From assembly GCA_944320975.1 (NCBI GenBank), contig CALUJM010000009.1, positions 18,484-82,483 on the forward strand: a stretch of DNA of 64,000 bases, read 5' to 3'. The notes under the pieces were generated by a model. That model worked only from the letters and a program-made list of their open reading frames with translations, made no database searches and was not told the origin of the DNA. This stretch comes from an uncultured Atopobiaceae bacterium (GTDB taxonomy: Bacteria > Actinomycetota > Coriobacteriia > Coriobacteriales > Atopobiaceae). Positions 7,554 through 57,426 of the stretch are shown piece by piece. The position numbers and the translations under genes are program-made. Each line of letters starts with the position of its first letter. Position 1 is the stretch's first letter.

Positions 7554-7588
7554 GATCGTGCGTGAAAACGAGAAGAACGCGCGGCGCG

Positions 7589-9387: not shown

Positions 9388-9477
9388 CTTGCGGGGCGCC
9401 GCCGGACCGGGGGATAGCCCGCAAGGTTAAGTTCATAACCAAGGGGACGCAACGTCTTCGGTGGCCCCTGCCGGCGC

Positions 9478-9501
9478 GGACCCAAATCCGGATTTGCGTC
9501 C
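9478..9501. repeat. Family B short palindrome, copy B4
   Basis: GGACCCAAATCCGGATTTGCGTCC (1 mismatch). Confidence 0.85.
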
Positions 9502-9558
9502 CGGGCAGGGACATTTCTCGGTTGCCAGGTGCTTCCTTCTGCTATGCAAAACCTCGTT

Positions 9559-9770
9559 TGTGTGCAAACGGGTCGTCGTCGTTCTTCTCGCCCTGTCATT
9601 TCGCACGCATTTGCCGATTGTGTGCAACAGCTTTTATGTCTGAGGGCTCCCCACATAAAACATGTTGCCCACAACCGAGAAGAACATGCGGGTTCGGGAC
9701 GATGTGCGACCGATAGGGGCCCTGCGCCGCCGCAAACCGCCTTCGGGCATCAAAGTTGTTGCACACAATC
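9559..9770. repeat. Family G block G1: three TGTGTGCAA boxes, including a perfect 13-nt inverted repeat GATTGTGTGCAAC (9616-28) / GTTGCACACAATC (9758-70)
   Basis: The boxes lie at 9559-69, 9616-28 (forward) and 9758-70 (reverse), inside a 755-bp gene-free region. Confidence 0.8.
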
Positions 9771-13076: not shown

Positions 13077-13290
13077 CGTCTTGAGAGGTGCGGCTACGCG
13101 ACGGTTCTTCTCGCCAGACCGTCGTCTGCCCGCACATCAACGGGACCGGTGCGGCAACGCGACACTTTCGTCGCCCAAAGCGTCGCGGATTCGCACCCCA
13201 ACGTGAGAGGTGCGGCTACGCGACGGTTCTTCTCGCCAGACCGTCGTCTGCCCGCACATCAACGGGACCGGTGCGGTAACGCGACACCTT
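13058..13290 (+). repeat. Family F array F1: about 122-124-bp direct repeat x2 (= four ~61-nt GGTGCGG...CCGCAC hairpin units)
   Basis: The unit GTCGCGGATTCGCACC..GAGAGGTGCGGCTACGCGACGGTTCTTCTCGCCAGACCGTCGTCTGCCCGCACATCAACGGGACCGGTGCGG(C/T)AACGCGACAC occurs twice. Copy 1 includes the last 6 codons and the stop of queH. Confidence 0.9.
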
Positions 13291-13422
13291 CGGTCCCCGG
13301 GCCGCCGCCCCGTGTTGTAAGGATTTGGCAAGCGCGCCCGCTCGTTCTTCTCGCCCGGCGTCCCATGGGCTACCGTGAGGGGGCCGCAATCACCCCGAGA
13401 GACGAGAAGGACGGTGGTAAAG

Positions 13423-14394
13423 ATGATCGAGTGCCTGCTTACCGGTGCCAACGGAACTGTCGAGAGAGTGGAGGCCCCGTGTCCGGGGTGCTGGGTCAAC
13501 GCCGTGGCCCCGTCCGAGGAGGAACGCGCCTGGCTCGAGACCGAGGTCGGCGTGCTGCCTGAGTTCGTCCTCTCTGCCCTCGACGAGGAGGAGACCTCCC
13601 GCGTCGATTACGACGAGGACGCGCGCCAGATCTTCGTCATCGTGGACTATCCTGTGGTCGACGAGGACGGCACCGTGCGCGCCTCGCTGCCGCTGCAATA
13701 CGACACCATGCCCCTCACCATGGTGTTCCTGCCAGAGAAGAGCCTCTTCGTCACCATCAGCACGCGGGAGAACGAGGTCGTCGCCGACCTGCGCGACGGT
13801 CGCGTGCGCGGCGTCGACACGCGCTACCGCACGCGCTTCCTTCTGCAGACGCTGCTGCACATCAGCCAGCTCTACCTCGTCTACCTGCGCCGCATCGACC
13901 GCATCTCGTCCCACACCGAGGCGCGCCTCCACGCGTCGGTGCGAAACGAGGAGCTCATCCAGATGCTCAACCTCGAGAAGTCCCTCGTGTACTTCTCGAC
14001 CTCGCTCAAGGCGGACGAGGTGACGCTCAACAAGATCGCCCAGGGCCGCATCATCCCGCTCTACGAGGACGACCAGGACCTGCTCGAGGACGTGCTCGTC
14101 GAGGTCCACCAGGCCATCGAGATGGCCAACATCTACTCCAACACGCTCTCCGGCACCATGGACGCCTTCGCGAGCATCATCTCCAACAACCTCAACATCG
14201 TGATGAAGGTGCTCTCCGTCATCACCATCGTCATGGCGATCCCCAACATCGTCTTCGGCTTCTACGGCATGAACGTGGACCTGCCCTTCGACGGCGTGCC
14301 GCTACTCGACAACTGGGCCTTCCCGCTGCTGCTTGCCGCCGTGGGCTGCCTGGTCGCGGCCCTCATCTTCAAGCGCAAGGGCATGTGGCACTAG
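13423..14394 (+). CDS. corA: CorA-family magnesium/cobalt transporter
   Basis: The GMN signature (FGFYGMNVDLP) lies between two C-terminal TM helices. ATG 13423 follows GAAGGACGGTGG. Confidence 0.85.
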   Translation: MIECLLTGANGTVERVEAPCPGCWVNAVAPSEEERAWLETEVGVLPEFVLSALDEEETSRVDYDEDARQIFVIVDYPVVDEDGTVRASLPLQYDTMPLTMVFLPEKSLFVTISTRENEVVADLRDGRVRGVDTRYRTRFLLQTLLHISQLYLVYLRRIDRISSHTEARLHASVRNEELIQMLNLEKSLVYFSTSLKADEVTLNKIAQGRIIPLYEDDQDLLEDVLVEVHQAIEMANIYSNTLSGTMDAFASIISNNLNIVMKVLSVITIVMAIPNIVFGFYGMNVDLPFDGVPLLDNWAFPLLLAAVGCLVAALIFKRKGMWH

Positions 14395-14499
14395 GCGAGA
14401 AGAACCTCGGGTCGCCCGCGCCAGGGGCTGAGCCCGTGGGAGACGCGCCGGCCGGCCGGTGGTATCGTAGTGCGCTGGAAATCTGCCGAAAGGACTCTC

Positions 14500-15666: not shown

Positions 15667-15702
15667 GGCGCCGAGCCCCGCCGCCAGTTCTTCTCGCCGC
15701 GC

Positions 15703-15803
15703 CCAAACGTCACAGCTAGTGGTACGTACCACTAGCTGTGAATTTAGAACGCATAGTAAGGGATAAATATATTTTTTTGAGTTACACTACCTGTGATGTT
15801 TGG
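15703..15803. repeat. Family E AT-rich MITE-like element, copy E1
   Basis: Terminal inverted repeats CCAAACGTCACAGCTAGTG / CACTACCTGTGATGTTTGG. It contains an internal perfect 30-nt palindrome (CACAGCTAGTGGTACGTACCACTAGCTGTG, 15711-40) and an AT-rich interior with a T7 run. Confidence 0.9.
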
Positions 15804-17606: not shown

Positions 17607-17755
17607 TGTAGGATGGGTCATTGTTTCGACCATGGGGCTGGCGAGAAGGACGACGAGGTCCGCCGCGAGTTCTCGCCGCGCTCCCTGCGGCAAGCTGTTT
17701 GAGCGCCGGACCTCGCCGTCCTTCTCGCCAGCCTTCCACGCGAGCGGAGGAAACC

Positions 17756-18895: not shown

Positions 18896-18938
18896 CGCCG
18901 GGCCGGCCCTGCGCTGCCGGCGGCGAGCCGGTCTTGCT

Positions 18939-19010
18939 CGCCGAGTAAGAGTTTCTTGCGAGAAGGACGTCAAATCCGAGGCGCTTCTCGCACATTTCTC
19001 TTACTCGGCG
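18939..19010. repeat. Family D MITE-like hairpin element, copy D2
   Basis: CGCCGAGTAAGAGTTTCTTGCGAGAAGG...GCTTCTCGCACATTTCTCTTACTCGGCG. It lies between tgt and recJ. Confidence 0.9.
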
Positions 19011-19184
19011 CGGGCGGTCGGCGGCTCGGCGCGTTGTCGGCGGCGAAACCGGGGCCCTTCTCGCATGGGGTATCATGGAGTCGATCAAATTCGGCGCCCG
19101 GCGCCCTCCGAGAAGAGGCTCATCATGAACATGACGCAGCGAGAAGAGCGCGCGGCTCGCGGCCGCGCGGGGAGTGAGCGCTAG

Positions 19185-22100
19185 ATGGCGGGGCTCTCCG
19201 ACAGTCGTCTCTGGTCGGTCCTGCCGCACGACCCGGTCGCCGAGAGGAGGCTCGCGGCAGAGCTCGGCCTGCCGCCCGTCGTGGCGCGCGTTCTGTCCGC
19301 CCGCGGCATCACGGATGTCCGGGAGGCGCGCGCCTTCCTCTCTCCGTCCCTCGAGCGCGACTGGGTCGACCCCCTGTGCATCCCGGGGATGGCCGATGCC
19401 GTCGAGCGCGTGGGTCGGGCCCTCGACGACCACGAGACCATCGCCGTCTTCGGCGACTTCGACGTCGACGGCATGAGCTCGACCTGCCTGCTCACGCTCG
19501 CCCTTCGACGCATGGGCGCCGAGGTCCACCCCTTCATCCCGCGGCGCTTCGGCGAGGGCTACGGCCTCTCCCGCGAGGCGCTCGCCCGCGTGCGCGAGAC
19601 CTGCGAGCCCGACCTCGTGGTGACCGTGGACAACGGCATCGCCGCGGCGCGCGAGGTGGCGTGGCTCAAGGAGCAGGGGGTCGATGTGGTGGTGACCGAC
19701 CACCACGAGCCTGCCGACCTCGTGCCCGTGGGCGTGCCCGTGACCGACCCCAAGCTCGCTCGCGACTGCCCGTCGCGCGAGCTGGCGGGCGTGGGCGTGG
19801 CCCTCAAGCTCGTGTGCGAGCTCGGCGGGCGGCGGGGGATGCCGGAGCTCTGGCGCGAGTTCCTCGACGTCGCCGCGCTCGGGACGCTTTCCGACATGAT
19901 GCAGCTCACGGGCGAGAACCGCGCGCTGGTCGCGGAGGGTATCTCCTTGATGCGGCGCTCGGCGCGCCCCGGCCTGGTGGCGCTCGCCGCGACGGCGGGG
20001 CTCGACCTCTCCCAGGCGAGCGCCGACTCCCTGCCCTTCTCGATCATCCCGCGGCTCAACGCCGCCGGTCGCATGGACTCCACCGACGTGGGCCTTGAGC
20101 TGCTCCTCACCGACGACGTCTCGGATGCCACGATCCTTGCCGGTCGCCTCGAGGCGATCAACGCCGAGCGGAAGGAGACCGAGGCCGCCCTGGCCGAGGC
20201 CGCCCTCGCCGAGGCGGAGCGCACCTATCGCGGGGAACGCGCCGTCGTCGTCGGCGGACGGGGCTGGCACGAGGGCGTCAAGGGCATCGTGGCATCCCGC
20301 CTGGTGAGCCGCTACCACGTCCCTTCCATCGTCTTCACCATCGCCGAGGACGGCGTCGCCCGCGGGTCGGGCCGCTCCGTCGGCTCCGTCGACCTCTTCC
20401 ACGCCGTCGAGCAGTGCTCGGACGTACTGGTGCGCTTCGGTGGCCACGCCGGCGCCGTGGGCGTCACCTGCGAGGCTTCGCGCATCGACGAGTTCCGCGA
20501 GCGTCTCGGCGGGGTGCTCGACGCGCTGCCCGCCGAGCAGTTCGACGACGTCGGCGAGGTGACGGCCGTCTGCGCGCTGGGGGAGCTCACCGTGGAGTCG
20601 CTCGACGCGCTCGAGATGCTCCAGCCCTTCGGGCAGGGCAACAAGAAGCCCCTGCTCGCAGCCTGCGGCGTGAGCATGCGCAACCGCGCCCTCGTGGGCG
20701 CCGACGGGTCGCACCTGCGCTTCGTCGCGACCGACGGCGCGAGCTCGGTCTCGGCCATCATGTTCCGCGTCCCGGACCCCGCCCGCGCGGCATCGTGGGA
20801 CGGCGTGTGCGACCTCGTGTTCGAGGCTGTCAACGAGACCTGGCAGGGTAGGACCAAGCCCAAGCTCATGGTGAAGGACATCCTCCTGCGCGACGGCGCG
20901 GGGGAAGGGGGCGGCGCCCGGCCGGGCCCCGAGGCGCCGGGAGCGCCCTCGGGCGACGAGGCGCCCGCACGCGGCTCGCGCGACGAGCTCTCCCGCCTCG
21001 ACGCGCCCGCTCTCGACGCGGCGCTGCTGCGCCTGCTCATCGGCGACGGCAGCCTGCTTCCCGCGCAGGCCGCCGCGCTCGACCTGCTGTCCCGCGGGCG
21101 CTCGTGCCTCGCCGTCATGGCGACGGGCCGGGGCAAGTCGCTCGTCTTCCACCTCCACGCCGCCCGCGAGGCCATCGCGCGCGGGCGAGCCAGCGTCTTC
21201 GTCTACCCGCTGAGGGCCCTTGTCGCCGACCAGGCGTTCCACCTGCGCGAGACGCTCTCCCGGGCGGGGCTGGGCGTCGAGGTCCTCACCGGCGAGACGT
21301 CGAGCGCCGAGCGCGACCGCATCTTCGCCGGCCTCGCCTCGGGGTCGGTCGACGTCGTCCTCACCACGCCCGAGTTCCTCGCCATCCACCGTGTGCGTTT
21401 CGCGGAGTCCGGCAGGATCGGCTTCCTCGTGGTCGACGAGGCCCATCACGCCGGGCTCGCCGCACCCGGCGCGCGCGACGCCTACCTCGAGCTACCGTCG
21501 ATTCTCGCCGACTTGGGTCGCCCCGTCGCCCTGGCCGTCACCGCGACGGCCGCCCCGGAGGTCGCCCACTCGATCTGCGGGCTGCTCTCCATCGACGAGG
21601 GCGACGTCGTCGTGGACGAGTCCGTGCGCGGCAACCTCGTCCTCGACGACCTTCGTTCATCCGGGGACCGGGACGCGGCCCTCGCATCGATCGTCGCGCG
21701 CGGCGAGAAGTGCGTGGTCTACGTGCCCTCCCGCGACCGAGCGGTCTCGCTCGTGCGCATGCTGCGCCATCGCGTGCCCGAGCTCGCCGCCCGCGTCTCG
21801 TACTATCACGCCGGGCTCTCCCGTGAGACGCGCCTCAGGGTCGAGCGCGCCTTCCGCGGGGACGAGCTCTCCTGCATCGTCTCCACGAGTGCCTTCGGCG
21901 AGGGTGTCAACCTCCCGGGCATCCGCCACGTGGTGCTCTACGGCCTACCGCTCGGCCAGGTCGAGTTCAACCAGATGAGCGGCAGGGCGGGCCGCGACGG
22001 GGCGCCGGCCACCGTTCACCTGCTCTTCGGTTCCGAGGACGTCCGCTCAGGCGAGGTCATCCTCGGATCTGCCGCCCCCGCCCGAGACGACCTCGTCTGC

Positions 22101-22490
22101 CTCTACCGCACCCTCGGCGCGCTCTTCCGCTCCGGCGGCCCGATCTCGCTCGACGACGAGGCCATCGCCGCCGCGTCCCGCGAGCGCGACCCGCTGACCG
22201 CACTCGACGCCCGGGAGGTGTCCTGCGGCCTCTCGATCTTCTCGGAGCTCGGATTCTGCGCGGTGACGGGCTGGGGAGAGGGGAGGCGCGTCCGCATGGC
22301 GAGCGCCCCCGCCCGCATGGAGCTCACCCAGTCGGCCTGCTATCTGGAGGGGCTGAGGCTCCAGCGCGCGTTCGCGGAGTTCTGCCGCTGGGCGCTCGAC
22401 GCGCCGCCGGACGTTCTTCTCGCCCGCGTGAACCGCCCCATCACGCCCAACTTCGGTATCATCGTCTCGGAGGGGAGTGAGGGGCTATGA
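19185..22490 (+). CDS. recJ: Fusion protein: RecJ-type ssDNA exonuclease (DHH/DHHA1) + C-terminal RecQ-like SF2 helicase
   Basis: Residues ~1-560 are RecJ-like (AVFGDFDVDGMSS, VVTVDNGI, VVVTDHH, GGHAGAVG). Residues ~600-1101 carry helicase motifs I (MATGRGKS), II (VVDEAHH), III (TATA) and VI (QMSGRAGRDG). Confidence 0.85.
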   Translation: MAGLSDSRLWSVLPHDPVAERRLAAELGLPPVVARVLSARGITDVREARAFLSPSLERDWVDPLCIPGMADAVERVGRALDDHETIAVFGDFDVDGMSSTCLLTLALRRMGAEVHPFIPRRFGEGYGLSREALARVRETCEPDLVVTVDNGIAAAREVAWLKEQGVDVVVTDHHEPADLVPVGVPVTDPKLARDCPSRELAGVGVALKLVCELGGRRGMPELWREFLDVAALGTLSDMMQLTGENRALVAEGISLMRRSARPGLVALAATAGLDLSQASADSLPFSIIPRLNAAGRMDSTDVGLELLLTDDVSDATILAGRLEAINAERKETEAALAEAALAEAERTYRGERAVVVGGRGWHEGVKGIVASRLVSRYHVPSIVFTIAEDGVARGSGRSVGSVDLFHAVEQCSDVLVRFGGHAGAVGVTCEASRIDEFRERLGGVLDALPAEQFDDVGEVTAVCALGELTVESLDALEMLQPFGQGNKKPLLAACGVSMRNRALVGADGSHLRFVATDGASSVSAIMFRVPDPARAASWDGVCDLVFEAVNETWQGRTKPKLMVKDILLRDGAGEGGGARPGPEAPGAPSGDEAPARGSRDELSRLDAPALDAALLRLLIGDGSLLPAQAAALDLLSRGRSCLAVMATGRGKSLVFHLHAAREAIARGRASVFVYPLRALVADQAFHLRETLSRAGLGVEVLTGETSSAERDRIFAGLASGSVDVVLTTPEFLAIHRVRFAESGRIGFLVVDEAHHAGLAAPGARDAYLELPSILADLGRPVALAVTATAAPEVAHSICGLLSIDEGDVVVDESVRGNLVLDDLRSSGDRDAALASIVARGEKCVVYVPSRDRAVSLVRMLRHRVPELAARVSYYHAGLSRETRLRVERAFRGDELSCIVSTSAFGEGVNLPGIRHVVLYGLPLGQVEFNQMSGRAGRDGAPATVHLLFGSEDVRSGEVILGSAAPARDDLVCLYRTLGALFRSGGPISLDDEAIAAASRERDPLTALDAREVSCGLSIFSELGFCAVTGWGEGRRVRMASAPARMELTQSACYLEGLRLQRAFAEFCRWALDAPPDVLLARVNRPITPNFGIIVSEGSEGL

Positions 22491-24883
22491 GCGACAACGT
22501 GACCAAGCACGAGAAGGCTGCGGAGGCTGCACCGACGCAGACGGCTCCCGTCGCGCCGGCCAAGCCCAAGAAGAGCGTGCCCGGCGCCGCGAACTACCGC
22601 CTGCTTCAGGCGGCCTGCGAGGCGTATCTGGACGAGGAGGGGTGCGAGAAGGTCGAGCGCGCGTACCGCTTTGCCGCGGACTACCACCGCGACCAGCGCC
22701 GTCGCTCCGGAGAGCCCTACATCAACCATCCCGTCGAGGTGGCCCTCATCCTGGCGCACGACCTGCGCATGGACGAGGACACCATCTGCGCCGCCCTTCT
22801 GCATGATACGGTCGAGGACACGCCCGCCACGCTCGGCGAGCTCACGGACCTCTTTGGCGAGACGGTGACCGACCTCGTGGACGGCGTGACCAAGCTCACC
22901 TCCATCCAGGTCTCCTCCATGGACGCCAAGCAGGCGTGGAACCTGCGCAAGATGTTCCTCGCCATGAGCCGCGACATCCGCGTGGTCATCATCAAGCTGG
23001 CCGACCGCCTGCACAACATGCGCACGCTCGCGGCGCTGCCGCCCGACCGGCGCCAGTTCAAGGCGCGCGAGACCATGGACGTGTACGCCCCGCTCGCCGA
23101 CCGCCTGGGCATCTCGTCGGTCAAGTGGGAGCTCGAGGACCTCGCCTTCTTCTGGCTCGAGCCCGAGGAGTACCAGCGGGTCGCCCGCATGGTCCAGGAC
23201 TCCCGCGCGCAGCGCGAGGACGACACCGAGGCGGCCATCAAGACGCTCGACGACGAGCTCAAGGCGGCAGGGCTCAAGAACTACCAGATCACCGGGCGTC
23301 CCAAGCACCTCTGGAGCATCTACCAGAAGATGACGCGCAAGGGCCGCGAGTTCTCCGACATCTACGACCTCATCGCCCTGCGCGTGATCACCCAGACGGT
23401 GGGGGACTGCTACTCGGCGCTCGGCGCCGTGCACTCGCTGTGGAACCCCATGCCCGGGCGCTTCAAGGACTACATCGCCACGCCCAAGGCAAACCTCTAC
23501 CAGAGCCTGCACACGACGGTCGTGGGCCCCGACGGCAAGCCCATCGAGATCCAGATCCGCACCGCGGAGATGCACGAGGCCTCCGAGTACGGCATCGCCG
23601 CGCACTGGCTCTACAAGAAGGAGGGCAACTCCCGCGGCCGCATGAGCGCCGAGGACCGCGCCATCGACTCCACGATCAACTGGATCCGCAAGACGCTTGA
23701 CTGGGCCACCGAGGACGACATCGACGACCCGCACGAGTTCCTCGACAACCTGCGCGTGGACCTCTTCGAGCACGAGATCTTCGTCTTCACGCCCAAGGGC
23801 GAGGTAATGAGCCTGAGGCGAGATGCGACGCCGCTCGACTTCGCCTACGCGGTCCACACCGAGGTGGGCAACCACTGCGTCGGGGCAAAGGTCAACGGCG
23901 CCGTGGTGCCGCTGTCCTACACGCTTAGCATGGGTGACCGCGTGGAGATCCTCACCAACAAGAACGCCAAGCCCAGCCGCGACTGGATGAGCCTGGTCGT
24001 GATGCCGTCCACGCGCGCCAAGATCCGCAAGTTCTTCTCGACCCAGAACCGCAACGACGACGCCGAGGCGGGTCGAACCGAGCTGGCCCACGAGCTGCGC
24101 AAGCGCGGCTACGGCATCTCGACCAAGCGCACGGTCAAGGCGATCGCGCGCGTGTGCGAGTCCTTCGAGCTGCGCTCGCCGGACGACCTGTTCGCGGGCG
24201 TCCACACCGGCAAGGTCTCGCTCAAGCAGGCCGCCAACCGCATCGAGGAGATCCTCGAGGAGGGCTCGCCCGAGCAGCTCGCGGCGGCCGCCGCCGAGGC
24301 GGAGCGCCGCGCCGAGCACGAGCGCGCCATGGCGTCGGGCACGCCGGTCATGAAGTCCTACGCGCTCACGCAGGCCGCGCGCGGCAAGCGCAAGCGCAGC
24401 AACTGCGGCGTGGTGGTCAAGGGCGACCCCGACCTTCTCGTCCACCTCGCGCACTGCTGCAACCCCGTCGCCGGCGACGAGATCGTGGGCTTTATCACCC
24501 GCGGCAGGGGCGTCTCGGTGCACCGCGCCAACTGCCCCAACGTCACCGACCTGATGCGCAACCCCGACCGCATGATCGAGGTCGCCTGGGACACCTCGGG
24601 CGCCACGGAGTTTCGCGTGGAGATCGTCGTCGAGGCCACCGACCGCATGGGCCTGCTCAAGGACATCACCGTGGCCATCGGCGACGCCGGCGCCAACATC
24701 CTCTCGGCCGCCACGCAGACGAGCGCCCAGGGCGTCGCGCGCCTGCGCTTCCTCGTGGCGATCTCCGACGCGAGCCTGCTCGACGTCCTGCTCTCCGCCG
24801 TGAGCCGCGTGCCCTCGGTCTACGACGCGCGCCGCATCATGCCCGGCGAGGGAGCGAACCAGATGAAGCAGCGCGTGCGATGA
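22487..24883 (+). CDS. rel: Bifunctional (p)ppGpp synthetase/hydrolase, RelA/SpoT family
   Basis: 798 aa with an HD domain (HPVEVALIL...LLHDTVEDT), a synthetase domain (GRPKHLWSIYQKM...DLIALRVI), TGS (FVFTPKGEV) and a C-terminal ACT-like domain. Confidence 0.9.
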   Translation: MSDNVTKHEKAAEAAPTQTAPVAPAKPKKSVPGAANYRLLQAACEAYLDEEGCEKVERAYRFAADYHRDQRRRSGEPYINHPVEVALILAHDLRMDEDTICAALLHDTVEDTPATLGELTDLFGETVTDLVDGVTKLTSIQVSSMDAKQAWNLRKMFLAMSRDIRVVIIKLADRLHNMRTLAALPPDRRQFKARETMDVYAPLADRLGISSVKWELEDLAFFWLEPEEYQRVARMVQDSRAQREDDTEAAIKTLDDELKAAGLKNYQITGRPKHLWSIYQKMTRKGREFSDIYDLIALRVITQTVGDCYSALGAVHSLWNPMPGRFKDYIATPKANLYQSLHTTVVGPDGKPIEIQIRTAEMHEASEYGIAAHWLYKKEGNSRGRMSAEDRAIDSTINWIRKTLDWATEDDIDDPHEFLDNLRVDLFEHEIFVFTPKGEVMSLRRDATPLDFAYAVHTEVGNHCVGAKVNGAVVPLSYTLSMGDRVEILTNKNAKPSRDWMSLVVMPSTRAKIRKFFSTQNRNDDAEAGRTELAHELRKRGYGISTKRTVKAIARVCESFELRSPDDLFAGVHTGKVSLKQAANRIEEILEEGSPEQLAAAAAEAERRAEHERAMASGTPVMKSYALTQAARGKRKRSNCGVVVKGDPDLLVHLAHCCNPVAGDEIVGFITRGRGVSVHRANCPNVTDLMRNPDRMIEVAWDTSGATEFRVEIVVEATDRMGLLKDITVAIGDAGANILSAATQTSAQGVARLRFLVAISDASLLDVLLSAVSRVPSVYDARRIMPGEGANQMKQRVR

Positions 24884-24924: not shown

Positions 24925-25027
24925 CCAAACGTCACAGGTAGTGGTTACTACCACATCTTGCGCGTTAAACGATTGGTCTATTGGGTTGTTTTTTTTTTGA
25001 GTTCACACTACCTGTGACGTTTCTGGG
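24925..25027. repeat. Family E AT-rich MITE-like element, copy E2
   Basis: Terminal inverted repeats CCAAACGTCACAGGTAGTG / CACTACCTGTGACGTTT, and an interior with a T10 run. A solo right-end-like fragment (GTGATGTTTGGGG) lies at 24886-97, just after the rel stop. Confidence 0.9.
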
Positions 25028-25677: not shown

Positions 25678-25797
25678 GCGGTCTGGGGCGCGCGTCCTTC
25701 TCGTCAGGGGCGCCGCACTTCTCCTTATCTGCCAAGAGAGCGCCCGCACTCGATGAGCGGGCGTCGAATCTCGCTTGGATTGAGGGGGGGAAGGAGC

Positions 25798-25882: not shown

Positions 25883-25921
25883 CCTTCCGTCACGCGTCCA
25901 CGCGCGACGCGGCGAGAAGAA

Positions 25922-26452
25922 CTATACCAGACCGTCGTCCTTCCCGTTCTCGTCTTGCCCGAGCGTCTCGAGGTACGCGATGGCGTCAGCTAGGCCGAGC
26001 GCCGCGACGGGGGCATGCTTGAGCAGCTGCTCGTCGCTGGTCACAAGAAGGTCGGCGTGAGAGCGCTCGGCCGCTGCGAGCACGAGGTTGTCCTCGTAGT
26101 CCGCGTGAAGGCGCTTTCTCTTGCAGGCAATCCACACGTCCGAGACGTCGCAGCCCACCGCCGTGGCAATCTGCGTCATGTTGTCCAGGCATCCCCAGGC
26201 CATCTCAGTTGCAGCGGCAGCCTGCTCGTGAGTGAGCCTGCCGCCGCACCGCCTTCTCGTCCATGCCTTGAAGTCAGACGAGATGAGATAGAAAAGGTCC
26301 TTTGAGGTCGGGATGGCGTAGAGGAGGTCTGCCCCAGCTTGCGCCGCGAGTTCTACGAGGCCGACGGCGTCGGCATGCCCCTCACGCGCGCTCGAGTAGT
26401 AGTCAACCCAGATGTTGGTGTCGAGAAGAACCTTGAGGGTGCCCGCGCTCAT
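25922..26452 (-). CDS. PIN-domain ribonuclease toxin (VapC-like)
   Basis: N-terminal VLLDTNIWVDY, conserved acidic residues, and a C-terminal LLVTSDEQLL motif. It lies 1 nt downstream of an antitoxin-like gene. Confidence 0.75.
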   Translation of the reverse strand: MSAGTLKVLLDTNIWVDYYSSAREGHADAVGLVELAAQAGADLLYAIPTSKDLFYLISSDFKAWTRRRCGGRLTHEQAAAATEMAWGCLDNMTQIATAVGCDVSDVWIACKRKRLHADYEDNLVLAAAERSHADLLVTSDEQLLKHAPVAALGLADAIAYLETLGQDENGKDDGLV

Positions 26453-27512: not shown

Positions 27513-27537
27513 CTGTCAAAAGGGGACGTGACGGGCT

Positions 27538-27582
27538 GTGACAATTAGGGCAGGTGACAATTTAACCTGTCCTAATTGTCAC
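27538..27582. repeat. Family A palindrome, copy A2 (short form)
   Basis: GTGACAATTAGGGCAGGT, loop GACAATTTA, then ACCTGTCCTAATTGTCAC (1 mismatch). It lies after the ferritin gene. Confidence 0.85.
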
Positions 27583-27635
27583 GCCCCAACTGTCACGCCC
27601 GCCGCTTGTGGAGATAATCTGGCGAGAAAAACCCG

Positions 27636-29556: not shown

Positions 29557-29580
29557 GTCGAGAAGAACGTTCTTCTCGAC
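29557..29580 (-). terminator. Perfect 24-nt palindrome immediately after the CAP-domain gene stop (possible terminator hairpin; made of two copies of the dispersed GAGAAGAAC motif)
   Basis: GTCGAGAAGAAC|GTTCTTCTCGAC lies 2 nt from the stop codon at 29583-85. There is no clear U-run on the minus strand. Confidence 0.45.
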
Positions 29581-29582: not shown

Positions 29583-30983
29583 TTACTTACATCCGTACCA
29601 GCCTATGCCCTCGTCCTTCCATCCGAGGGAGACGAGCATGTCGCGCTCGCCGGCGTTAGCCGTGTAGTTGTGGGTGCCCGTGACGGCGTTGGGATTGTAC
29701 TGGCGGTAGAGGGGCATGCCGTCCGAGCCAGCAGAATACCAGCCGATTCCCTCGCCGGTCCAGCCGAGGCTCACAAGCCAGTCGTACTCGTCCTTGTCCA
29801 TCGTGTAGTGGTGGTCGCCACCGACGACATGCGAGTTGTAGAGGCGGTAGACGGGGTCTCCGGTGACCGGTGCGACCCAGCCCGCGCCTTCGTTCTTCCA
29901 TCCGAGCGAGATGAGGTTCGCGCGCTCGTCGGAGTTGCTGGTGTAGAAGTGCTCCCCGGTGTTGGGGTTGTAGAGGCGCCACATGATCTGCGTCTGTCCC
30001 GGGATGGCCTCCGGCAGGTCGACCGAGCCTCCGCCCGGGTTGGCGGCGCTTCCGCCGCTCACCACGAAAGCGCGGGTCCACGTGTGGCCGCCCTGAGAGG
30101 TGGCGGTCACCGTCGCGGTTCCATTCGAGACTGCGGTGACGACGCCGTGTTCACTCACCGTGGCAACGTTCTCGTTCGAGGACTTCCATGTGTAGAAGTC
30201 AGGGTCGGCAGGGCAGAAGACGTAGTCCCAGCCGGGATTGGGGATCCCGACGCGCAGCTCGTAGGTGTCTCCCGCGGAGAGGGAGACGGTGTCCTCCTGG
30301 GCCTGGTTGAGGTTGAATCCGGATTGGGAGAGGGGAACCGTTGCGTAGCTGAAGCCGATCGTCGCCTGCCCGTAGACGGACCCCGACTGAACGGTGCCCG
30401 TTGCCGCGCCCCGCCCGAAGAGCTGGGTCCAATATGTGACGCCGCCCACGGTGAAGCAACCGACGCCGATCGAGTTCCAGGAACCCATGATGTTGGACCT
30501 GTGCCCCGGGCTGTTCATCCACTGGCTCATCGTCGCCGCGGGCGTGCTGGAGCCTGCGGCGATGTTCTCACCGGATGCCTTGCCGGAGATGGTGAAGCAG
30601 CTGGAGCCGTCGGGGCGGGTATGGCTGAAGTTGAGGGCGCACTCGGCGGAGCGAACCATTGCGGCCTCTGTCAGGTCCTCGTCCATGGAGAGGGGGCTCA
30701 GGCCCTGTGCCGCGCGCTCCTGGTTGACGAGGTCGACGATCTGCCGTGCATAGTCGTAGTTGAGGAGCCCCGTCATGCCCGTGACGTCGTCGACGGATGC
30801 CATCAGATCGATGCTGTCTTGATCTTGGCGGACGGCGGCGTCGATTGAGGGCGCCGTCAGGGCCGATGCCTCGCGGGGATACGCCGTGAAGGAGAGAAGC
30901 ACGGCGAAGAGCGCTGTCGCGAGCAGGCTTGCCGTCGCGCGCCGTCCTGCGGTCGGCATTGTCTTTCTGTTAGACATGGGCAC
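29583..30983 (-). CDS. Secreted multidomain protein: signal peptide + CAP/SCP (YkwD-like) domain + Ig-like (Big_2-like) domain + three C-terminal ~45-aa repeats
   Basis: Signal peptide (ATASLLATALFAVLLSFTAYPREASA). CAP motifs (VNQERAAQGLSPL...HTRPDGS...GENIA...WMNSPGHRSNI). Ig-like segment (VATVSEHGVVTAVSNGTATVTATS). Three repeats of the type YRLYNPNTGEHFYT..E...L.SLGW..EG.GW. Confidence 0.8.
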   Translation of the reverse strand: MPMSNRKTMPTAGRRATASLLATALFAVLLSFTAYPREASALTAPSIDAAVRQDQDSIDLMASVDDVTGMTGLLNYDYARQIVDLVNQERAAQGLSPLSMDEDLTEAAMVRSAECALNFSHTRPDGSSCFTISGKASGENIAAGSSTPAATMSQWMNSPGHRSNIMGSWNSIGVGCFTVGGVTYWTQLFGRGAATGTVQSGSVYGQATIGFSYATVPLSQSGFNLNQAQEDTVSLSAGDTYELRVGIPNPGWDYVFCPADPDFYTWKSSNENVATVSEHGVVTAVSNGTATVTATSQGGHTWTRAFVVSGGSAANPGGGSVDLPEAIPGQTQIMWRLYNPNTGEHFYTSNSDERANLISLGWKNEGAGWVAPVTGDPVYRLYNSHVVGGDHHYTMDKDEYDWLVSLGWTGEGIGWYSAGSDGMPLYRQYNPNAVTGTHNYTANAGERDMLVSLGWKDEGIGWYGCK

Positions 30984-32223: not shown

Positions 32224-32299
32224 GCTTTTCTCCTTAGTCTTGCCGTTCGTTGCTATGCTCATCCGCCGAGAAGGACGGCGGGTGGTGCCGGGTGGGGCA

Positions 32300-36352: not shown

Positions 36353-36600
36353 GCTGTCCTCGCTTTCTCTTGTCAGGTGCGAGAAATGCGAGGTGCAGCC
36401 TCGAAGCCGTCACGGTGGCCGCCGGCACGCGGTACTTCTCGGCGCGTCGGCGGGGTTGTCCCGGCGGCCGCGCGGAGGTTCTCGCGAGCTGCTCGAGGGA
36501 GTCTTCGGAGCCGTCCGGCGCGGGTTCTCACGCTGCCCGCTCGCTGTGGGACGGATGCGGCCCGTACTGGCCCTGTCATCGCATTTGCTCGTGGCTCGTT
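36353..36600 (-). promoter_or_regulatory. Candidate T-box-like leader of the ilvD-ilvB-ilvN-ilvC operon
   Basis: On the minus strand, a Stem-I-like module spans 36490-36583. It reads TGCGATGA(7 nt)AGTA...CCGTCC-cacAGCGA-GCGGG-cagcGTGAGAA-CCCGC-gcc-GGACGG...GAAGACTCCCTCGAGCA (K-turn halves, AGTA box, AGVGA bulge, distal loop, specifier-like loop). An AGTACCGCG match to part of the T-box sequence lies at 36428-36. The UGGN bulge is not evident. Confidence 0.4.
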
Positions 36601-36660
36601 ACTCTACGCGCGCCGTGTTTCCGGGGCGTAATCGCCCGCGAACGGCAACGTTTCGCCTCC

Positions 36661-36786
36661 GAGCGGTGAGACGGTGGGGACCCAAGTGACCCAAATGGGG
36701 ACAGGATACTTTTGGGACATCTGCTCGGATGTCCCAAAAGTATCCTGTCCCCATTTGGGTCACTTGGGTCACACTGTCTCACCGCT
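36661..36786. repeat. Long palindromic element (family C, left flank of the Y1 transposase)
   Basis: Outer stem GAGCGGTGAGAC / GTCTCACCGCTC. Inner arms are GACCCAAGTGACCCAAATGGGGACAGGATACTTTTGGGACATC and its complement, around loop TGCTCG. Confidence 0.9.
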
Positions 36787-36847
36787 CGACGTGTACGCCC
36801 TTCCCTCTTTTGGGTATCAGGAAAGGACCGGGGGGAGAGGAGGCGGC

Positions 36848-37588
36848 ATGCGTACGGCGCGGGCGATTTCTAAAAGCGGGTACTATCACGTCATCCTGCG
36901 GGGCGACGGCAAGCGGCAAATCTTCGAGGATGACTTCGACAGGAGGGCGTTTCTCGGCCTCGTGGAGAGCTGCCTCGTCGCTCGCGGGGTCGACGTTGTC
37001 GCCTGGTGCCTCATGAGCAACCACGTGCATCTTGTGGTCTGCGACACTGAGGAGAACCTGAGCGAGGCCGTCGGCTCGCTCGCCATGCGCTACGCGCGGC
37101 GCTTCAACGCGCGGACCGGTCACGTCGGGCACGTATTTCAAGAGCGGTTCAAAAGCTCTCCCATCGAGAGCGACGCATATCTTCTCGAGGCTGTCCGCTA
37201 TGTTCACAACAACCCTGAGAAGAGCGGCATCTGCCGTGCCGAGGAGTACCCCTGGAGCAGCTACTCGGAATATGTCGCGGGTCCAAAGATCTGTGATACG
37301 GAAGTCATTCTTGACATGCTTGGCGGGGTGGAAGGCTTCAAGGAGTTCTGCTCCGCTGCGCCCTCGACTATCTATAGGTTCACGGGTCATGTGAGGATTC
37401 CCGACGACGAGATGGGGGAAGTGGCGAGGTCTGCGCTCGGAGACGTCTCCGTTTACGACGTGAGGGCGCTCCCGGCGGGCGAGAGAAACGAGAAGCTTCG
37501 CGCTCTTCGCGAATGCGGGCTCTCTGTCCGTCAAATTGAGCGGCTTACGGGGATTGGGGCCAAGACCATCACGCGAGCGACAACGTGA
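36848..37588 (+). CDS. IS200-like Y1 (HUH) tyrosine transposase, REP-associated (RAYT-like), with C-terminal HTH-like tail
   Basis: HUH motif in CLMSNHVHLVVC. Catalytic Tyr motif in AVRYVHNNPEKSG. N-terminus YYHVILRGDGKRQIFEDD. ATG 36848 follows GAGAGGAGG. The stop TGA lies inside the right hairpin. Confidence 0.85.
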   Translation: MRTARAISKSGYYHVILRGDGKRQIFEDDFDRRAFLGLVESCLVARGVDVVAWCLMSNHVHLVVCDTEENLSEAVGSLAMRYARRFNARTGHVGHVFQERFKSSPIESDAYLLEAVRYVHNNPEKSGICRAEEYPWSSYSEYVAGPKICDTEVILDMLGGVEGFKEFCSAAPSTIYRFTGHVRIPDDEMGEVARSALGDVSVYDVRALPAGERNEKLRALRECGLSVRQIERLTGIGAKTITRATT

Positions 37589-37691
37589 CCCAAATGACCC
37601 AAATGGGGACAGGATACTTTTGGGACATCCGAGCAGATGTCCCAAAAGTATCCTGTCCCCATTTGGGTCCCCATTTGGGTCATTTGGGTCA
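37585..37691. repeat. Long palindromic element (family C, right flank of the Y1 transposase)
   Basis: TGACCCAAATGACCCAAATGGGGACAGGATACTTTTGGGACATC, loop CGAGCA, then the complement with one extra CCCCATTTGGGT unit. Confidence 0.9.
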
Positions 37692-37703
37692 GTCCTCACT
37701 GTC

Positions 37704-38924
37704 TCACAGGGAGGTCTGGACGAGGGTGGGGGAGAAGCCCGCGGCCTCGAGGGCGCCCACGATCTGCGCCTTGTGGTCGCTTCCGAAGGCCTCGATCGTC
37801 ACGCGCAGCTCCACGGCGGCGTTGCGGTTGGTCGAGACGAACTGGTTGTGCTCGAGCTTGATGACGTTGCCGTTCTGCTCCGCGACGGCCTGCGCGACGC
37901 GCACGAGCATGCCGGGGCGGTCGGGCAGCAGCACGCTCACGGTGAAGATACGGTCGCGCATGATCAGCCCGTGCTGCACCACGGAGCTCATCGTGATGAC
38001 GTCCATGTTGCCGCCTGAGAGGATCGAGACCACGCGCTTGTTCTCGGCGGGCAGGTGCTTGAGCGCCGCCACGGTGAGCAGGCCCGAGTTCTCGACAATC
38101 ATCTTGTGGTTCTCGACCATGTCGAGAAACGCAACCACGAGCTCGTCGTCCGGCACGGTCATGACGTCGTCGAGGTTGTCGCGCAGGTACGGGAAGACCC
38201 GGTCGCCCACCTCGAGCACCGCGGTGCCGTCGGCGATGGTGTTGGCGCTCGGCAGCTTCACGGGGGAGCCCGCCTCAAGCGCGGCGGTAAGCGAGGGCGC
38301 GCCCGCCGGCTCAACGCCGATGACTCGGATTTTGGGGTTGTAGAGCTTGGCGAAGGTGGCGACGCCGCACGCGAGGCCGCCGCCGCCCACCGGGACCAGG
38401 ATCGTGTCGACGAGCGGCAGCTCCTGCACGACCTCCATCGCGATCGTCCCCTGGCCCGTGGCGACCGTCGGGTCGTTGAAGGGGTGGATGAAGGTGTACC
38501 CCTCGCGCTCGGCGAGCTCGAGGGCATGGTCGCACGCCTCGTCGTAGACGTCGCCGTGCAGCACGACCTCGGCGCCGTAGTGCTTGGTCCTCTCGACCTT
38601 GATGAGCGGCGTCGTCTCGGGCATGACCACGACCGAGCGCGCGCCGGCGCGGGTGGCGGCAAAGGCGACGCCCTGGGCGTGGTTGCCCGCGCTCGCGGTG
38701 ATGATGCCGCGCCCGAGCTCCTCGGGGGAGAGGGTCGAGATCTTGTAGTAGGCGCCGCGCACCTTGTAGGCCCCGGTGCGCTGGAGGTTCTCGGGCTTGA
38801 GCCAGACGCGGTTCCCCGTCTGGGCCGAGAAGTGCGGGCTCTCCACGAGCTTGGTCTCGAGCGTGACCTCGCGGACCTTCTCGGAGGCCTCCTCAAACGC
38901 CTCGAGCGTGAGCATCTCTGCCAT
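37704..38924 (-). CDS. ilvA: Threonine ammonia-lyase (threonine dehydratase) with C-terminal ACT-like domain
   Basis: PLP-site sequence (ENLQRTGAYKVRGAYYK, ASAGNHAQGVA, GGGGL). ATG 38924 follows GAGGGGGA. The track ORF extends spuriously to 40052 across a tRNA gene. Confidence 0.9.
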   Translation of the reverse strand: MAEMLTLEAFEEASEKVREVTLETKLVESPHFSAQTGNRVWLKPENLQRTGAYKVRGAYYKISTLSPEELGRGIITASAGNHAQGVAFAATRAGARSVVVMPETTPLIKVERTKHYGAEVVLHGDVYDEACDHALELAEREGYTFIHPFNDPTVATGQGTIAMEVVQELPLVDTILVPVGGGGLACGVATFAKLYNPKIRVIGVEPAGAPSLTAALEAGSPVKLPSANTIADGTAVLEVGDRVFPYLRDNLDDVMTVPDDELVVAFLDMVENHKMIVENSGLLTVAALKHLPAENKRVVSILSGGNMDVITMSSVVQHGLIMRDRIFTVSVLLPDRPGMLVRVAQAVAEQNGNVIKLEHNQFVSTNRNAAVELRVTIEAFGSDHKAQIVGALEAAGFSPTLVQTSL

Positions 38925-39038: not shown

Positions 39039-39872
39039 ATGGAAACCATCGAGAAGAACCGCGCGGCCGGCGCCGCACAGGGGACTCCGCTCTTCCAGAT
39101 TCACGACGCGAGCGTGGTTCGCGGAGGCAAGACCATCCTCCACGTCGCGGACTTCTCGCTTGCCGAGGGCGAGCACGTCGCCCTTCTCGGCCCCAACGGG
39201 GCGGGAAAGTCCACCTTCATCCAGCTCCTCACCCGAGAGGTCTTCCCCCTGTGGCGCGAGGAGCCGCCGGTGCTCTTCCGCGGCCAGGCCCGGCCCCAGC
39301 TCGCCGACATCAAGCGGACCCTCGGAATCGTGAGCTCGACGATGCACGACCAGGTGCGCGTCCACCTGCCGGTCATCGACATCGTGGTGGGCGGCATCTT
39401 TGGCACGCTCGGCGTGCCGCTGCGCGGAAAGGTGGGCGAGAAGGACCGCGCGCTCGCGTTGGACGCCCTTGGCCGCCTCGGCATCGCCGAGCTCGCCGAC
39501 CGCGACGTCATGACGCTCTCCACGGGCCAGGTGCGCCGCGTGCTCGTCGCGCGCGAGCTCGTGCGCGACCCCCAGGTCCTCATCTTCGACGAGCCCTGCA
39601 CCGGGCTCGACCCCCAGGGCATGTACCACGTCCGCCAGACCATGGGCACGCTCGCCGCCGAGGGGCGCTCGGTGGTGCTCGTGACGCACTACCCCGAGGA
39701 CATCATCCCGGAGATCCGCCGCGTCCTTCTCATCAAGGACGCCGAGGTCTTCGCTGACGGTCCCAAGGAGGATCTGCTCACCGGGGAGGTCATGAGCGGG
39801 CTCTTTGACGTCCCGCTCGTGGTGGGGGAGGCCGACGGGTGGTACTCCCTGCGCGGCACGTACGAGGCGTGA
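39039..39872 (+). CDS. ABC transporter ATP-binding protein (orphan ATPase, ModF-like)
   Basis: Walker A GPNGAGKST, signature LSTGQVRR, Walker B VLIFDEP. There is no adjacent permease gene. Confidence 0.8.
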   Translation: METIEKNRAAGAAQGTPLFQIHDASVVRGGKTILHVADFSLAEGEHVALLGPNGAGKSTFIQLLTREVFPLWREEPPVLFRGQARPQLADIKRTLGIVSSTMHDQVRVHLPVIDIVVGGIFGTLGVPLRGKVGEKDRALALDALGRLGIAELADRDVMTLSTGQVRRVLVARELVRDPQVLIFDEPCTGLDPQGMYHVRQTMGTLAAEGRSVVLVTHYPEDIIPEIRRVLLIKDAEVFADGPKEDLLTGEVMSGLFDVPLVVGEADGWYSLRGTYEA

Positions 39873-40232: not shown

Positions 40233-40408
40233 AGATTGTGTGCAAACAATTTGATGTAGATTCTGGACCGGGTCGCCTCCGCCTCGTTTTGGGGCGGGAA
40301 AATGCGGACAAAATGTCGAGAAGAACCTGTTGTGTGCAACAAGATTGATGGAAAGGTGGCCAGGCGGGCGGAGGCGAAGGCGGCTATATCAAAGATTTTG
40401 CACACAAC
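40233..40408. repeat. Family G block G2: three TGTGTGCAA boxes, including an 11-nt inverted repeat GTTGTGTGCAA (40329-39) / TTGCACACAAC (40398-408)
   Basis: The boxes lie at 40233-46, 40329-40 (forward) and 40398-408 (reverse). It shares (C/T)ATCAAAG(T/A)T(G/T)TTGCACACAA with G1. It sits inside an 833-bp gene-free region. Confidence 0.8.
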
Positions 40409-40836
40409 TGCGAATCGCAATCGCGCATCGCGGCCCCGCGGTGCGCCGGCGCGAGAAGAACCGGCGGCACAAAGACGCCCCCTGCGGCGAATAATGAACC
40501 CACCTCTCATAAGGTGGGCGTCCCCATCGCGCGTTCCGGCTTCCTCATCAACGGAGGATACCCGTACTGAACACGAGATATCGGACTCCCTCGTAACGCT
40601 TGTCGGTTCACCCAGTTTGACCGCAGGGGGACGACATCACCTACTATAGGGAAGCCGTATGGAGATACCAGTCTTGACTTACGGCCCCTTCTCGGCAAAA
40701 GTGATTCTGTACGTGCGCTTTTTCGCGCTCGCAAGCTCTCGTCCAGCCTCTTTTTCCCCGCCTTCGACCCTCCGGGGGGCCGTTTCGGCTATCATGGCAG
40801 GGCAGCAGGGGCCGGACCGAGCGACGAGGAGGCGAG

Positions 40837-44841: not shown

Positions 44842-44892
44842 ACCTGCCGGCCCAGCGTCCTTCTCGGCAAACCCGGATCCAGTGCTGTGTTC

Positions 44893-44925
44893 GCCGCGGA
44901 CCCAAATCCGCATTTGGGTCCGCGG
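44893..44925. repeat. Family B palindrome, copy B5 (15-bp stem, loop CCGC)
   Basis: GCCGCGGACCCAAAT-CCGC-ATTTGGGTCCGCGGC. Confidence 0.9.
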
Positions 44926-45028
44926 CGGCAGTGGCTTTCGAGGTTGCTAATTCGTTTAGATTACGGACTTAATTTTGCGGACTGTCCTCAGGTCCAGGGG
45001 CGCCTCGCTAGCCGAGAAATGACCTCGA

Positions 45029-45060
45029 CTCCGGACCCAAATCCGCATTTGGGTCCGGAG
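45029..45060. repeat. Family B palindrome, copy B6 (14-bp stem, loop CCGC)
   Basis: CTCCGGACCCAAAT-CCGC-ATTTGGGTCCGGAG. Confidence 0.9.
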
Positions 45061-45167
45061 CAGCGGGCACTTCTCGTCAAGCGGGGCGTTCCTCAGCCGA
45101 GAGGTTAACCCCGGGTTCAAGTTCTTCATCGACAAGAACGTTTGGGCCCAACGGCCGCCACGGTACG

Positions 45168-45221
45168 GGACCCAAATCCGGATTTGGGTCCGCCGAGAAC
45201 GCAAATGAGGATTTGGGTCCC
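45168..45221. repeat. Family B palindromes, copies B7 (45168-91) and degenerate B8 (45195-221)
   Basis: GGACCCAAATCCGGATTTGGGTCC followed by GAGAACGCAAATGAGGATTTGGGTCCC. This is the same intact-plus-degenerate doublet layout seen at 9313-9367. Confidence 0.85.
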
Positions 45222-45303
45222 GGGCTGGGGAGGCCATCTGTGCCGCCGCGGCTCTGTTACACTCAACAGGTTGCCAACAATGACTACCCACGGGGGAGAC
45301 ACA

Positions 45304-57410: not shown

Positions 57411-57426
57411 GGCGAGAAGAACCTTG

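Follow-up and report, generated by a model that had tools for sequence, protein, structure and literature searches.

Why should one short sequence recur again and again just past the stop codons of a GC-rich bacterial genome? The question is raised by a 64,000-nucleotide stretch of contig CALUJM010000009.1 (positions 18,484 to 82,483; assembly GCA_944320975.1) from an uncultured Atopobiaceae bacterium, referred to here as the window, in which boxes of 10-12 nt are scattered and two head-to-head copies form a palindrome at 29557-29580. A first-pass annotation of this DNA had described the boxes as almost exclusively intergenic, likened them to the DNA uptake sequences (DUS) of Neisseria and Pasteurellaceae, and named a 3'-end RNA element or the footprint of a repeat family as alternatives. 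Here we find that a clade-specific DNA word, G-N-N-CTTCTCG(-C-C), underlies the boxes, which show it at full length and free of constraint. This word, read as double-stranded DNA, is kept in genes and spacers, in both orientations and in several Atopobiaceae lineages. The analysis covers this one window, loci of about 21 kb from relatives, which represent a single syntenic region throughout, and metagenome loci picked for carrying an inverted pair of words. Gene models were our own calls from codon statistics (54 genes, 87% coding); over 4.5-25.3 kb of the window they match the database calls, with the exception of metG, which was called too long.

The GC content of the window is 67.8%. The exact 12-mer GGCGAGAAGRAC occurs in it 18 times, against 0.07 expected from dinucleotide shuffles, and 52 copies are found when up to one mismatch is allowed, against 1.47 expected; the claim that the box stands far above chance is thereby borne out for the window. 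The 64 kb contain 110 copies of the underlying word, G-N-N-CTTCTCG, compared with 5.27 +/- 2.17 in shuffled sequences, which gives a density of about 1.7 per kb and a mean spacing of 582 bp with a Poisson-like spread. Its 7-mer core, CTTCTCG/CGAGAAG, is present 136 times where a second-order Markov model expects 24. The exact core is enriched 5.7-fold, and each of its single-base variants is enriched less, at most 4-fold. When all copies are aligned, a G at position -3 relative to CTTCTCG is found in 94% of the intergenic and 76% of the genic copies. The intergenic copies also carry T-T at the two N positions and C-C after the final G, giving the full-length form GTTCTTCTCGCC, which is found where no protein is encoded and often just past stop codons. 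No description of this word was found in the literature searched.

About 70% of the G-N-N-CTTCTCG copies in the window are genic. For the core, 102 of the 136 copies lie within genes (52 reading CTTCTCG and 50 reading CGAGAAG on the sense strand), and the remaining 34 amount to a roughly 2-fold enrichment over the 12.4% share expected for intergenic DNA (P=4.5e-5). The strict 10-mer CGAGAAGAAC is intergenic in 16 of 26 cases and genic in 10 (intergenic excess P=5e-9), and seven of the 18 exact 12-mers are inside genes. Every coordinate given by the first-pass annotation does hold a copy, including the GGGCACTTCTCG boxes at 7521, 9375 and 45065 with their inverse at 9294, and the in-frame copies at 323, 39050 and 62564. 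Its description of the boxes as almost exclusively intergenic was nevertheless overstated, because 10 of 26 copies of CGAGAAGAAC are genic and the GAAGGAC variant is mostly genic; copies within genes at 6424, 9967, 22413, 24031, 26422, 35618 and 60532 had been overlooked.

Could codon usage alone produce the genic copies? In synonymous-codon shuffles, which hold every protein sequence constant, sense CTTCTCG is expected 12.0 +/- 3.1 times in the window genes and is observed 52 times (z 12.8). Sense CGAGAAG reaches 50 against 37.1 expected and is near saturation, because 59 of the 61 Glu-Lys pairs are already written GAG-AAG. Val-Leu-Leu followed by G is encoded as GTYCTTCTC-G in 11 of 12 cases, yet CTT makes up 8% of the leucine codons. 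Coding copies use three of the six reading frames, the -3 G is significant in each of three coding contexts (P=1e-4, 3e-4 and 2e-3), and the excess at the synonymous level is also present in relatives of 46-70% GC. Synonymous and codon-order shuffles rule out a codon-usage artefact of the Glu-Lys-Asn/Asp kind. It had been argued at first pass that equally frequent coding copies would point to such an artefact; the motif is indeed frequent in coding DNA, but the artefact is refuted. The GAAC/GTTC core and the neighbouring extracytoplasmic function (ECF) sigma gene had also suggested LexA sites, heat-shock-type operators or ECF promoters, and these were dropped because most copies are single half-sites inside genes. 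As a separate observation, three genes begin with M-x(1-3)-E-K-N, written ...CGAGAAGAAC (315-332, 39039-39059 and 62559-62573), and the tripeptide EKN is found 6 times where 1.0 is expected.

The two orientations are balanced. G-N-N-CTTCTCG is found 61 times on the plus strand and 49 times on the minus strand, and every 8-kb bin is unskewed; genic copies in 160 kb of related high-GC DNA number 92 sense and 91 antisense. These counts bear on the idea that the word is a polar chromosome motif, either a Chi site or one of the FtsK-orienting polar sequences (KOPS) and SpoIIIE recognition sequences (SRS) that guide FtsK/SpoIIIE. Such motifs are, like the word, short and over-represented, and the sequence of the word is similar to the SRS of B. 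subtilis, GAGAAGGG, and to GAAGAAG, the KOPS of L. lactis (PMC3384302). They are, however, strongly skewed to the leading strand (roughly 80-90%) and occur about once per 10-16 kb (PMC3384302), whereas the word is unskewed and about 20 times denser, and GAGAAGGG itself is divided 7 versus 11 between the strands of the window. The lack of strand skew contradicts a polar motif, to which we give almost no credence.

Placement relative to stop codons is distinctive within the window, as had been reported: 10 of the 16 intergenic copies of GTTCTTCTCG lie within 60 nt past a stop, a zone that makes up 28% of the non-coding DNA. The individual sites are the following.

29557-29580: perfect 24-nt palindrome of two head-to-head copies, GTCGAGAAGAAC directly followed by GTTCTTCTCGAC, 2 nt past the TAA of a YkwD-domain gene.
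29583-30902, minus strand: the YkwD-domain gene.
53419-53430, plus strand: GTTCTTCTCGCC, 6 nt past the stop of a branched-chain amino-acid binding-protein gene.
57411-57422, minus strand: GTTCTTCTCGCC, 4 nt past the stop of a GHMP-kinase (thrB-like) gene, adjoining 61-nt tandem hairpin repeats.
63625-63636, plus strand: GTTCTTCTCGGC, loop and 3' arm of the asd terminator.
25911-25922, minus strand: GTTCTTCTCGCC, whose first G also belongs to the TAG stop of a PIN-toxin gene, upstream of a hairpin and tRNA-Leu.
7567-7578, minus strand: GTTCTTCTCG, 10 nt past the stop of a hydrolase-acetyltransferase gene.
15687-15698, plus strand: GTTCTTCTCGCC, 20 nt past the queA stop and followed by a hairpin like a miniature inverted-repeat transposable element (MITE); this stretch is missing in the related loci L001 and L002.
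13104-13115, plus strand: GTTCTTCTCGCC, 27 nt past the queH stop; it occupies the loop of a 61-nt repeat unit.
13226-13237 and 13344-13355: further copies near queH, a duplicate and a third copy.
14394-14405, minus strand: GGCGAGAAGAAC, directly past the corA TAG, in the orientation opposite to most stop-proximal copies.
25694-25705, plus strand: GTC variant GTCCTTCTCGTC, 16 nt past the stop of a metallo-beta-lactamase-fold gene.
44857-44868 and 32265-32276: similar stop-proximal GTC variants.
9581-9592, plus strand: copy in the 755-bp spacer between metG and the hydrolase gene, with an opposite-orientation partner at 9674-9685.
40315-40326, minus strand: copy in a divergent spacer downstream of tRNA-Ala, with a second copy at 40450-40461.
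17640-17729: inverted pair GGCGAGAAGGAC ... GTCCTTCTCGCC, base of a long hairpin element upstream of tgt.
7521-7532 (plus strand), 9375-9386 and 45065-45076, with an inverted copy at 9294-9305: GCA variant GGGCACTTCTCG, within palindrome arrays and hairpins.
6409-6433: inverted pair GTCCTTCTCG-cctgc-CGAGAAGAAC, within the 5' end of the anti-sigma gene.
11005-11029: inverted pair CGAGAAGGAC-tgctg-GCCCTTCTCG, within metG.
22413-22422, plus strand: genic copy in the recJ-helicase gene.
24031-24040, plus strand: genic copy in relA/spoT.

Two of the more specific claims of the first reading stand unchanged: the 29557-29580 element consists of two copies in a perfect 24-nt palindrome, for which a 10-bp stem is predicted (fold z of the region -8.3), and the box at asd does supply the loop and 3' arm of the terminator. 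The predicted folds differ between sites. The copies at 13104 and 7569 lie in a loop, that at 25913 is unpaired 5' of a hairpin, and those at 29559 and 63625 form part of a hairpin stem; the 53419-53430 box lies 5' of a classical terminator hairpin, either unpaired or partly paired in a long-range stem.

This variability is relevant to the possibility that GUUCUUCUCGCC, as part of the transcript past the stop, is bound by Rho or another RNA-binding factor, or pairs with another RNA, and so sets or protects mRNA 3' ends. The stop-proximal copies of the window, about 10-11 sense and 2-4 antisense and usually with a hairpin after them, are what such an element would give, and the tract is pyrimidine-rich. 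Furthermore, GTTCTTCTCG at 13344 can pair with the ribosome-binding region of corA at 13403: its complementarity to CGAGAAGGAC, which covers the corA ribosome-binding site, is complete when one G-U pair is counted, and the 13344-13412 pairing may form a sequestering helix in the leader of this magnesium transporter gene. However, the copies have no constant structural place, being in a loop, in a stem or unpaired; the orientation past stops is 10 versus 12 in the related loci (5 versus 7 without the pairs selected by the scan); and the roughly 70% of copies within genes lie in both orientations and above codon expectation. A search of the window with Rfam returned two tRNAs only and no family for the box. 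A constant RNA structure, or a terminator or 3'-UTR motif, fails on the varying folds and on the sense-only orientation, since the sense rule is true of the window and vanishes in 160 kb of related DNA. A 3'-end RNA element, one of the alternatives named earlier, thus loses most of its ground and appears improbable. Enrichment towards gene ends was rejected in the same manner, as the end deciles of the window genes hold 18 and 16 copies against about 5.5 and the effect is absent in 120 genes of the related loci.

The relatives provide the evidence for conservation. QueA is 94% identical to its counterparts in Atopobiaceae metagenome-assembled genomes (MAGs; L001-L003) and 76-85% identical to those of Olsenella, Enorma and Collinsella. 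Contigs of the same species were found in several metagenomes at 97-100% identity, and it is because of this near-identity that L081-L087 were unusable for site turnover. L001 and L002 represent the closest species, syntenic with the window and 82-89% identical in genes. Nearly all intergenic boxes are missing from them and their spacers are different or shorter; their word density equals that of the window, with the -3 G in 92-97% of copies. Orthologous genic sites were kept as follows.

L001: 16 of 25 sites kept, control rate 0.33, P=0.0013.
L002: 12 of 24 sites kept, control rate 0.30, P=0.03.
L004: 6 of 15 sites kept, control rate 0.18, P=0.04.
L016: 7 of 12 sites kept, control rate 0.18, P=0.002.

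Retention of the word at orthologous sites in other species is therefore two to three times that of control patterns, while the two N positions are conserved no better (0.70-0.82) than aligned DNA overall (0.76-0.83). The copy at 22413-22422, for instance, is kept in three other species with its NN changing (GTT, GAC, GAG), and that at 24031-24040 is kept in L001, L002 and L004 (GTT to GTA). The metG pair at 11005-11029 is whole in L001, and L002, L004 and L016 have its first half, CGAGAAGGAC, only. Over about 160 kb of related loci the word density is 1-2 per kb. In Atopobium sp. MAGs of 46% GC, TTCTCGCC is found 5 times against 0.3 expected and CGAGAAG 10 times against 2.0 at the synonymous level; no such excess was seen in Enorma, Collinsella or Atopobium oral taxon 810, and in Collinsella and Enorma the word is at baseline. 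Scanning metagenomes for inverted pairs gave 120 loci, a large part of them by chance or coding coincidence. The word-rich ones among them (>=1 per kb) range from 43 to 70% GC and have the common consensus G-N-t-CTTCTCG-c-C. Inverted pairs lie 0-41 nt past stop codons in L163, L174, L177, L184 and L195; loci of this kind came from a scan for pairs and give no estimate of pair frequency. The distribution of the word within the Atopobiaceae is patchy.

The absence of most intergenic copies from L001 and L002 is also what one would expect if the intergenic boxes were pieces of mobile or tandem repeats, such as repetitive extragenic palindromic (REP) sequences and their hairpin-forming doublets (REPINs), MITEs or 61-nt arrays, with the coding copies arising from avoidance of the codon pair CTC-CTC. 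The species does have spacers full of other repeats, namely palindrome arrays, GTGACAAT...ATTGTCAC hairpins, 61-nt units and MITE-like inserts, and a transposase gene resembling those of the REP-associated tyrosine transposases (RAYTs). These elements are located as follows.

36791-37588: Y1/IS200-like transposase open reading frame of 265 aa; best NCBIfam match 'REP-associated tyrosine transposase', scoring 62.7 bits where the cut-off is 80.
9173-9506 and 44892-45225: palindrome GGACCCAAATCCGGATTTGGGTCC arrayed at a period of 135 bp, with a GGGCACTTCTCG box in each unit.
4270-4378, 27524-27584, 51995-52070 and 61057-61144: third hairpin repeat family, GTGACAATTAGGACAGGTT(G/C)(A/C)ATTGTCAC.
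13082-13292 and 57229-57411: 61-nt hairpin units in tandem, GAGGTGCGG...CCGCACCTC; one array is inverted with respect to the other.
About 15704-15803 and 24925-25027: AT-rich MITE-like inserts of ~100 bp with inverted ends CCAAACGTCACAG(C/G)TAGTG.
17640-17729, with counterparts in L001 (about 5040-5140 and 9860-9960) and L002 (about 3950-4030): long hairpin element.
About 7477-7551 and 18937-19013: hairpin CGCCGAGTAAGAGTTTCTTGCGAGAAG...CTTCTCGC...CTCTTACTCGGCG, present twice.

Some boxes clearly sit in these elements. The 13104 and 13226 copies ride in 61-nt units, the GCA variants are within the 135-bp palindrome arrays, and the copies at 17640 and 17718 form the stem of the hairpin element. 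Most single copies, however, have only the 12-mer in common, and the repeat on either side of the RAYT-like gene is another one, consisting of GACCCAAATGGGGACAGG... hairpins without the word. A repeat of REP/REPIN type belonging to the local RAYT was rejected, as the word is asymmetric, 102 of the 136 cores are genic and the RAYT flanks hold this other repeat. REPs with their RAYTs are likewise intergenic, often just past stops, species-specific and associated with hairpins; unlike the non-palindromic and mostly genic word, they are imperfect palindromes of 20-40 nt confined to spacers. CTC-CTC, in turn, is strongly avoided for Leu-Leu in the coding sequence of the window (14 against 65 expected), which by itself would favour CTG-CTC. 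As the sole cause it leaves unexplained why a G follows (30 of 35) and why a G stands at -3 in three contexts, as well as the TTC-TCG excess, the excess in the reverse reading, the presence of the same word in genomes of 46% GC and the retention at orthologous sites. A repeat footprint hence accounts for the copies inside tandem hairpin repeats and palindrome arrays, and for those only; as an explanation of the word it is unlikely, though somewhat less so than the RNA element. The CTC-CTC avoidance itself is strand-specific, since GAG-GAG is common on the sense strand (CTCCTC: 23 sense versus 88 antisense), and may reflect the shunning of anti-Shine-Dalgarno-like CCUCC tracts in mRNA.

The repeats show several further features. 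In the transposase region (36679-37669), 91-nt inverted repeats flank the open reading frame, each of them itself a perfect hairpin (GACCCAAATGGGGACAGGATACTTTTGGGACATC...), a layout that looks RAYT/REPIN-like in a Coriobacteriia genome; nothing linking RAYTs to Actinobacteria was found in the literature searched. The GGACCCAAATCCGGATTTGGGTCC arrays, in which ATTTGGGT has 20 copies against 0.28 expected, may be REPINs of the RAYT-like gene, because ACCCAAAT is common to the arrays and its flanks. Members of the GTGACAATTAGGACAGGTT(G/C)(A/C)ATTGTCAC family are usually perfect or near-perfect inverted pairs directly past genes. In the 61-nt unit arrays the box is found at the array edge or in every second unit, where it occupies the loop. 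The AT-rich inserts are absent from the same places in the syntenic L001 and L002. The loop of the long hairpin element is conserved (..GCGAGTTCTCGCC..AAGCTGTTTGAGCGCCGGA), and its stems vary by copy and species yet stay complementary; the element may represent an old MITE or act as a structured RNA, and no Rfam family matched it at gathering score. The two CGCCGAGTAAGAGTTTCTTGCGAGAAG hairpins lie between the anti-sigma and hydrolase-acetyltransferase genes and downstream of tgt.

What, then, reads the word? We tentatively propose that it is a DNA-level recognition word acting like an uptake signal, with inverted pairs that double as terminator hairpins. Fragments that carry the word would be bound preferentially by a DNA receptor that a competence apparatus exposes at the cell surface, and homologous recombination of such fragments would drive it into any position that the protein code or the spacer tolerates. 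Spacers just past stops would be the most tolerant, which is the proposed reason why the complete 12-mer is seen there, and two inverted copies would form a hairpin that also serves as a terminator. The likeness to DNA uptake sequences noted at first pass is strengthened by the present results, because the frequent coding copies are no codon artefact. In the window and the related loci the word stands far above chance at about one per kb, with equal orientations and no replication-strand skew; its copies are in genes as well as spacers, and the coding ones exceed codon usage in preferred frames; and it is specific to and shared by the clade, conserved in position across species and absent from outgroups. 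The inverted pairs directly past stops, which stand as putative terminators downstream of genes at 29557-29580 and in five related loci, add a further element of likeness.

A pattern of this kind is otherwise most familiar from the uptake signals of Neisseria and Haemophilus. Among known systems, the DUS of Neisseriaceae, whose receptor is ComP, is also an asymmetric word of 10-12 bp found roughly once per kb in both orientations. Like the present word, it occurs within genes in preferred frames and in spacers, forms inverted pairs that are terminators directly past genes, and is common to a clade with sequence variants (PMC3630211, PMC3868556, 10.1101/2025.10.24.684340). Unlike in the DUS, two internal positions are free here, only about 25-30% of copies are intergenic and the density of the 8-position word is higher, and the host is a Gram-positive actinobacterium without known competence. 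The uptake signal sequence (USS) of Pasteurellaceae is, as here, mostly genic, fitted by codon and residue choice, and arranged in inverted pairs in terminators (10.1101/2025.10.24.684340). About half of the DUS/USS copies and most inverted pairs are in terminators, and the coding copies sit in preferred reading frames (10.1101/2025.10.24.684340). The USS differs in its 9-bp core with AT-rich flanks, and its competence and uptake bias were shown experimentally, whereas our case consists of a pattern in the DNA.

Several points weigh against an uptake signal. Neither natural transformation nor uptake sequences of Coriobacteriia are reported in the literature searched. In those Gram-positive bacteria in which transformation has been studied, it is not known to be sequence-specific. 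The 8-position word is denser than DUS/USS. Uptake predicts no bias among the stop-proximal copies, and those of the window are mostly in the sense orientation (about 10:2), for which the resemblance of the reverse reading GAGAAGG to a ribosome-binding site offers a loose account. The sample, moreover, is narrow, with one 64-kb window, syntenic loci of ~21 kb and metagenome loci selected for the pair. The distribution in foreign DNA, where an uptake signal should be depleted, gives mixed signals: the region of the RAYT insert (36432-38826) has zero copies, but rho and pncB likewise have zero, and eight viral contigs that carry the pair are otherwise word-poor, their hosts not being identified. 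A search for a prophage control via the 3' end of tRNA-Leu found no viral contig.

All of the DNA-level evidence would also suit a reader inside the cell. The word could be the binding or marking site of an abundant chromosomal protein or a genome-maintenance system, for example a nucleoid protein, a solitary methyltransferase or a repair factor, and be selected within the cell, not by uptake. The excess over codon usage, the -3 G, the conservation in orthologs, the balanced orientation and the spread over 43-70% GC fit this explanation equally, and 1.7 copies per kb is nearer to marking sites than to DUS. A similar suspicion exists for HIP1 (GCGATCGC) of cyanobacteria, a clade-wide word that is over-represented in coding and non-coding DNA and kept at orthologous sites, all of which recalls the present word. 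HIP1, however, is a palindrome tied to methyltransferase sites and the word here is asymmetric; as it is not self-complementary, an iterated palindrome of HIP1 type was rejected. No candidate for an intracellular reader was found, and we know of no nucleoid protein with a strict asymmetric 8-of-10 site at such density. The patchy spread among close lineages is more in keeping with an accessory system than with a core function of the chromosome, and the inverted pairs directly past stops are left unexplained. We consider an intracellular reader a possibility of some weight, if a rather doubtful one. Collectively, we infer that uptake signals fit the pattern best among known systems, and that an intracellular reader fits almost as well.

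The window carries, in addition, pst/phoU, an ECF sigma/anti-sigma pair, metG, queH, corA, queA, tgt, a recJ-helicase fusion, relA, ilv genes, argS, rho, a liv transporter and thrB/thrC/hom/lysC/asd; no competence genes are present among the genes of the 64 kb. The fusion gene (19185-22490) encodes a 1101-aa protein in which a RecJ-type DHH/DHHA1/OB exonuclease is joined to a DEAD/Helicase_C helicase, and it is conserved in relatives. TAG is the commonest stop, at roughly 60% of the 54 gene calls, which is unusual at 68% GC.

Words that saturate a genome are rare, and behind those that are understood stands some machine by which the entire chromosome is read; uptake receptors, FtsK and RecBCD are examples. 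A word conserved over 43-70% GC predicts a new sequence-specific DNA reader in a common group of bacteria of the gut and mouth. Should the reader be a competence receptor, sequence-selective transformation would exist in a Gram-positive lineage; adding the word to donor DNA would provide a handle for the genetics of organisms that have no tools, and self DNA could be recognised by the word, both in binning metagenomes and in the detection of foreign islands. It may even be, although we regard this as uncertain and rather unlikely, the first uptake signal outside Proteobacteria, with transformable Atopobiaceae that favour their own DNA through a surface receptor and a word that marks their shared gene pool. 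If the reader is intracellular instead, the word would reveal a new chromosome-marking system.

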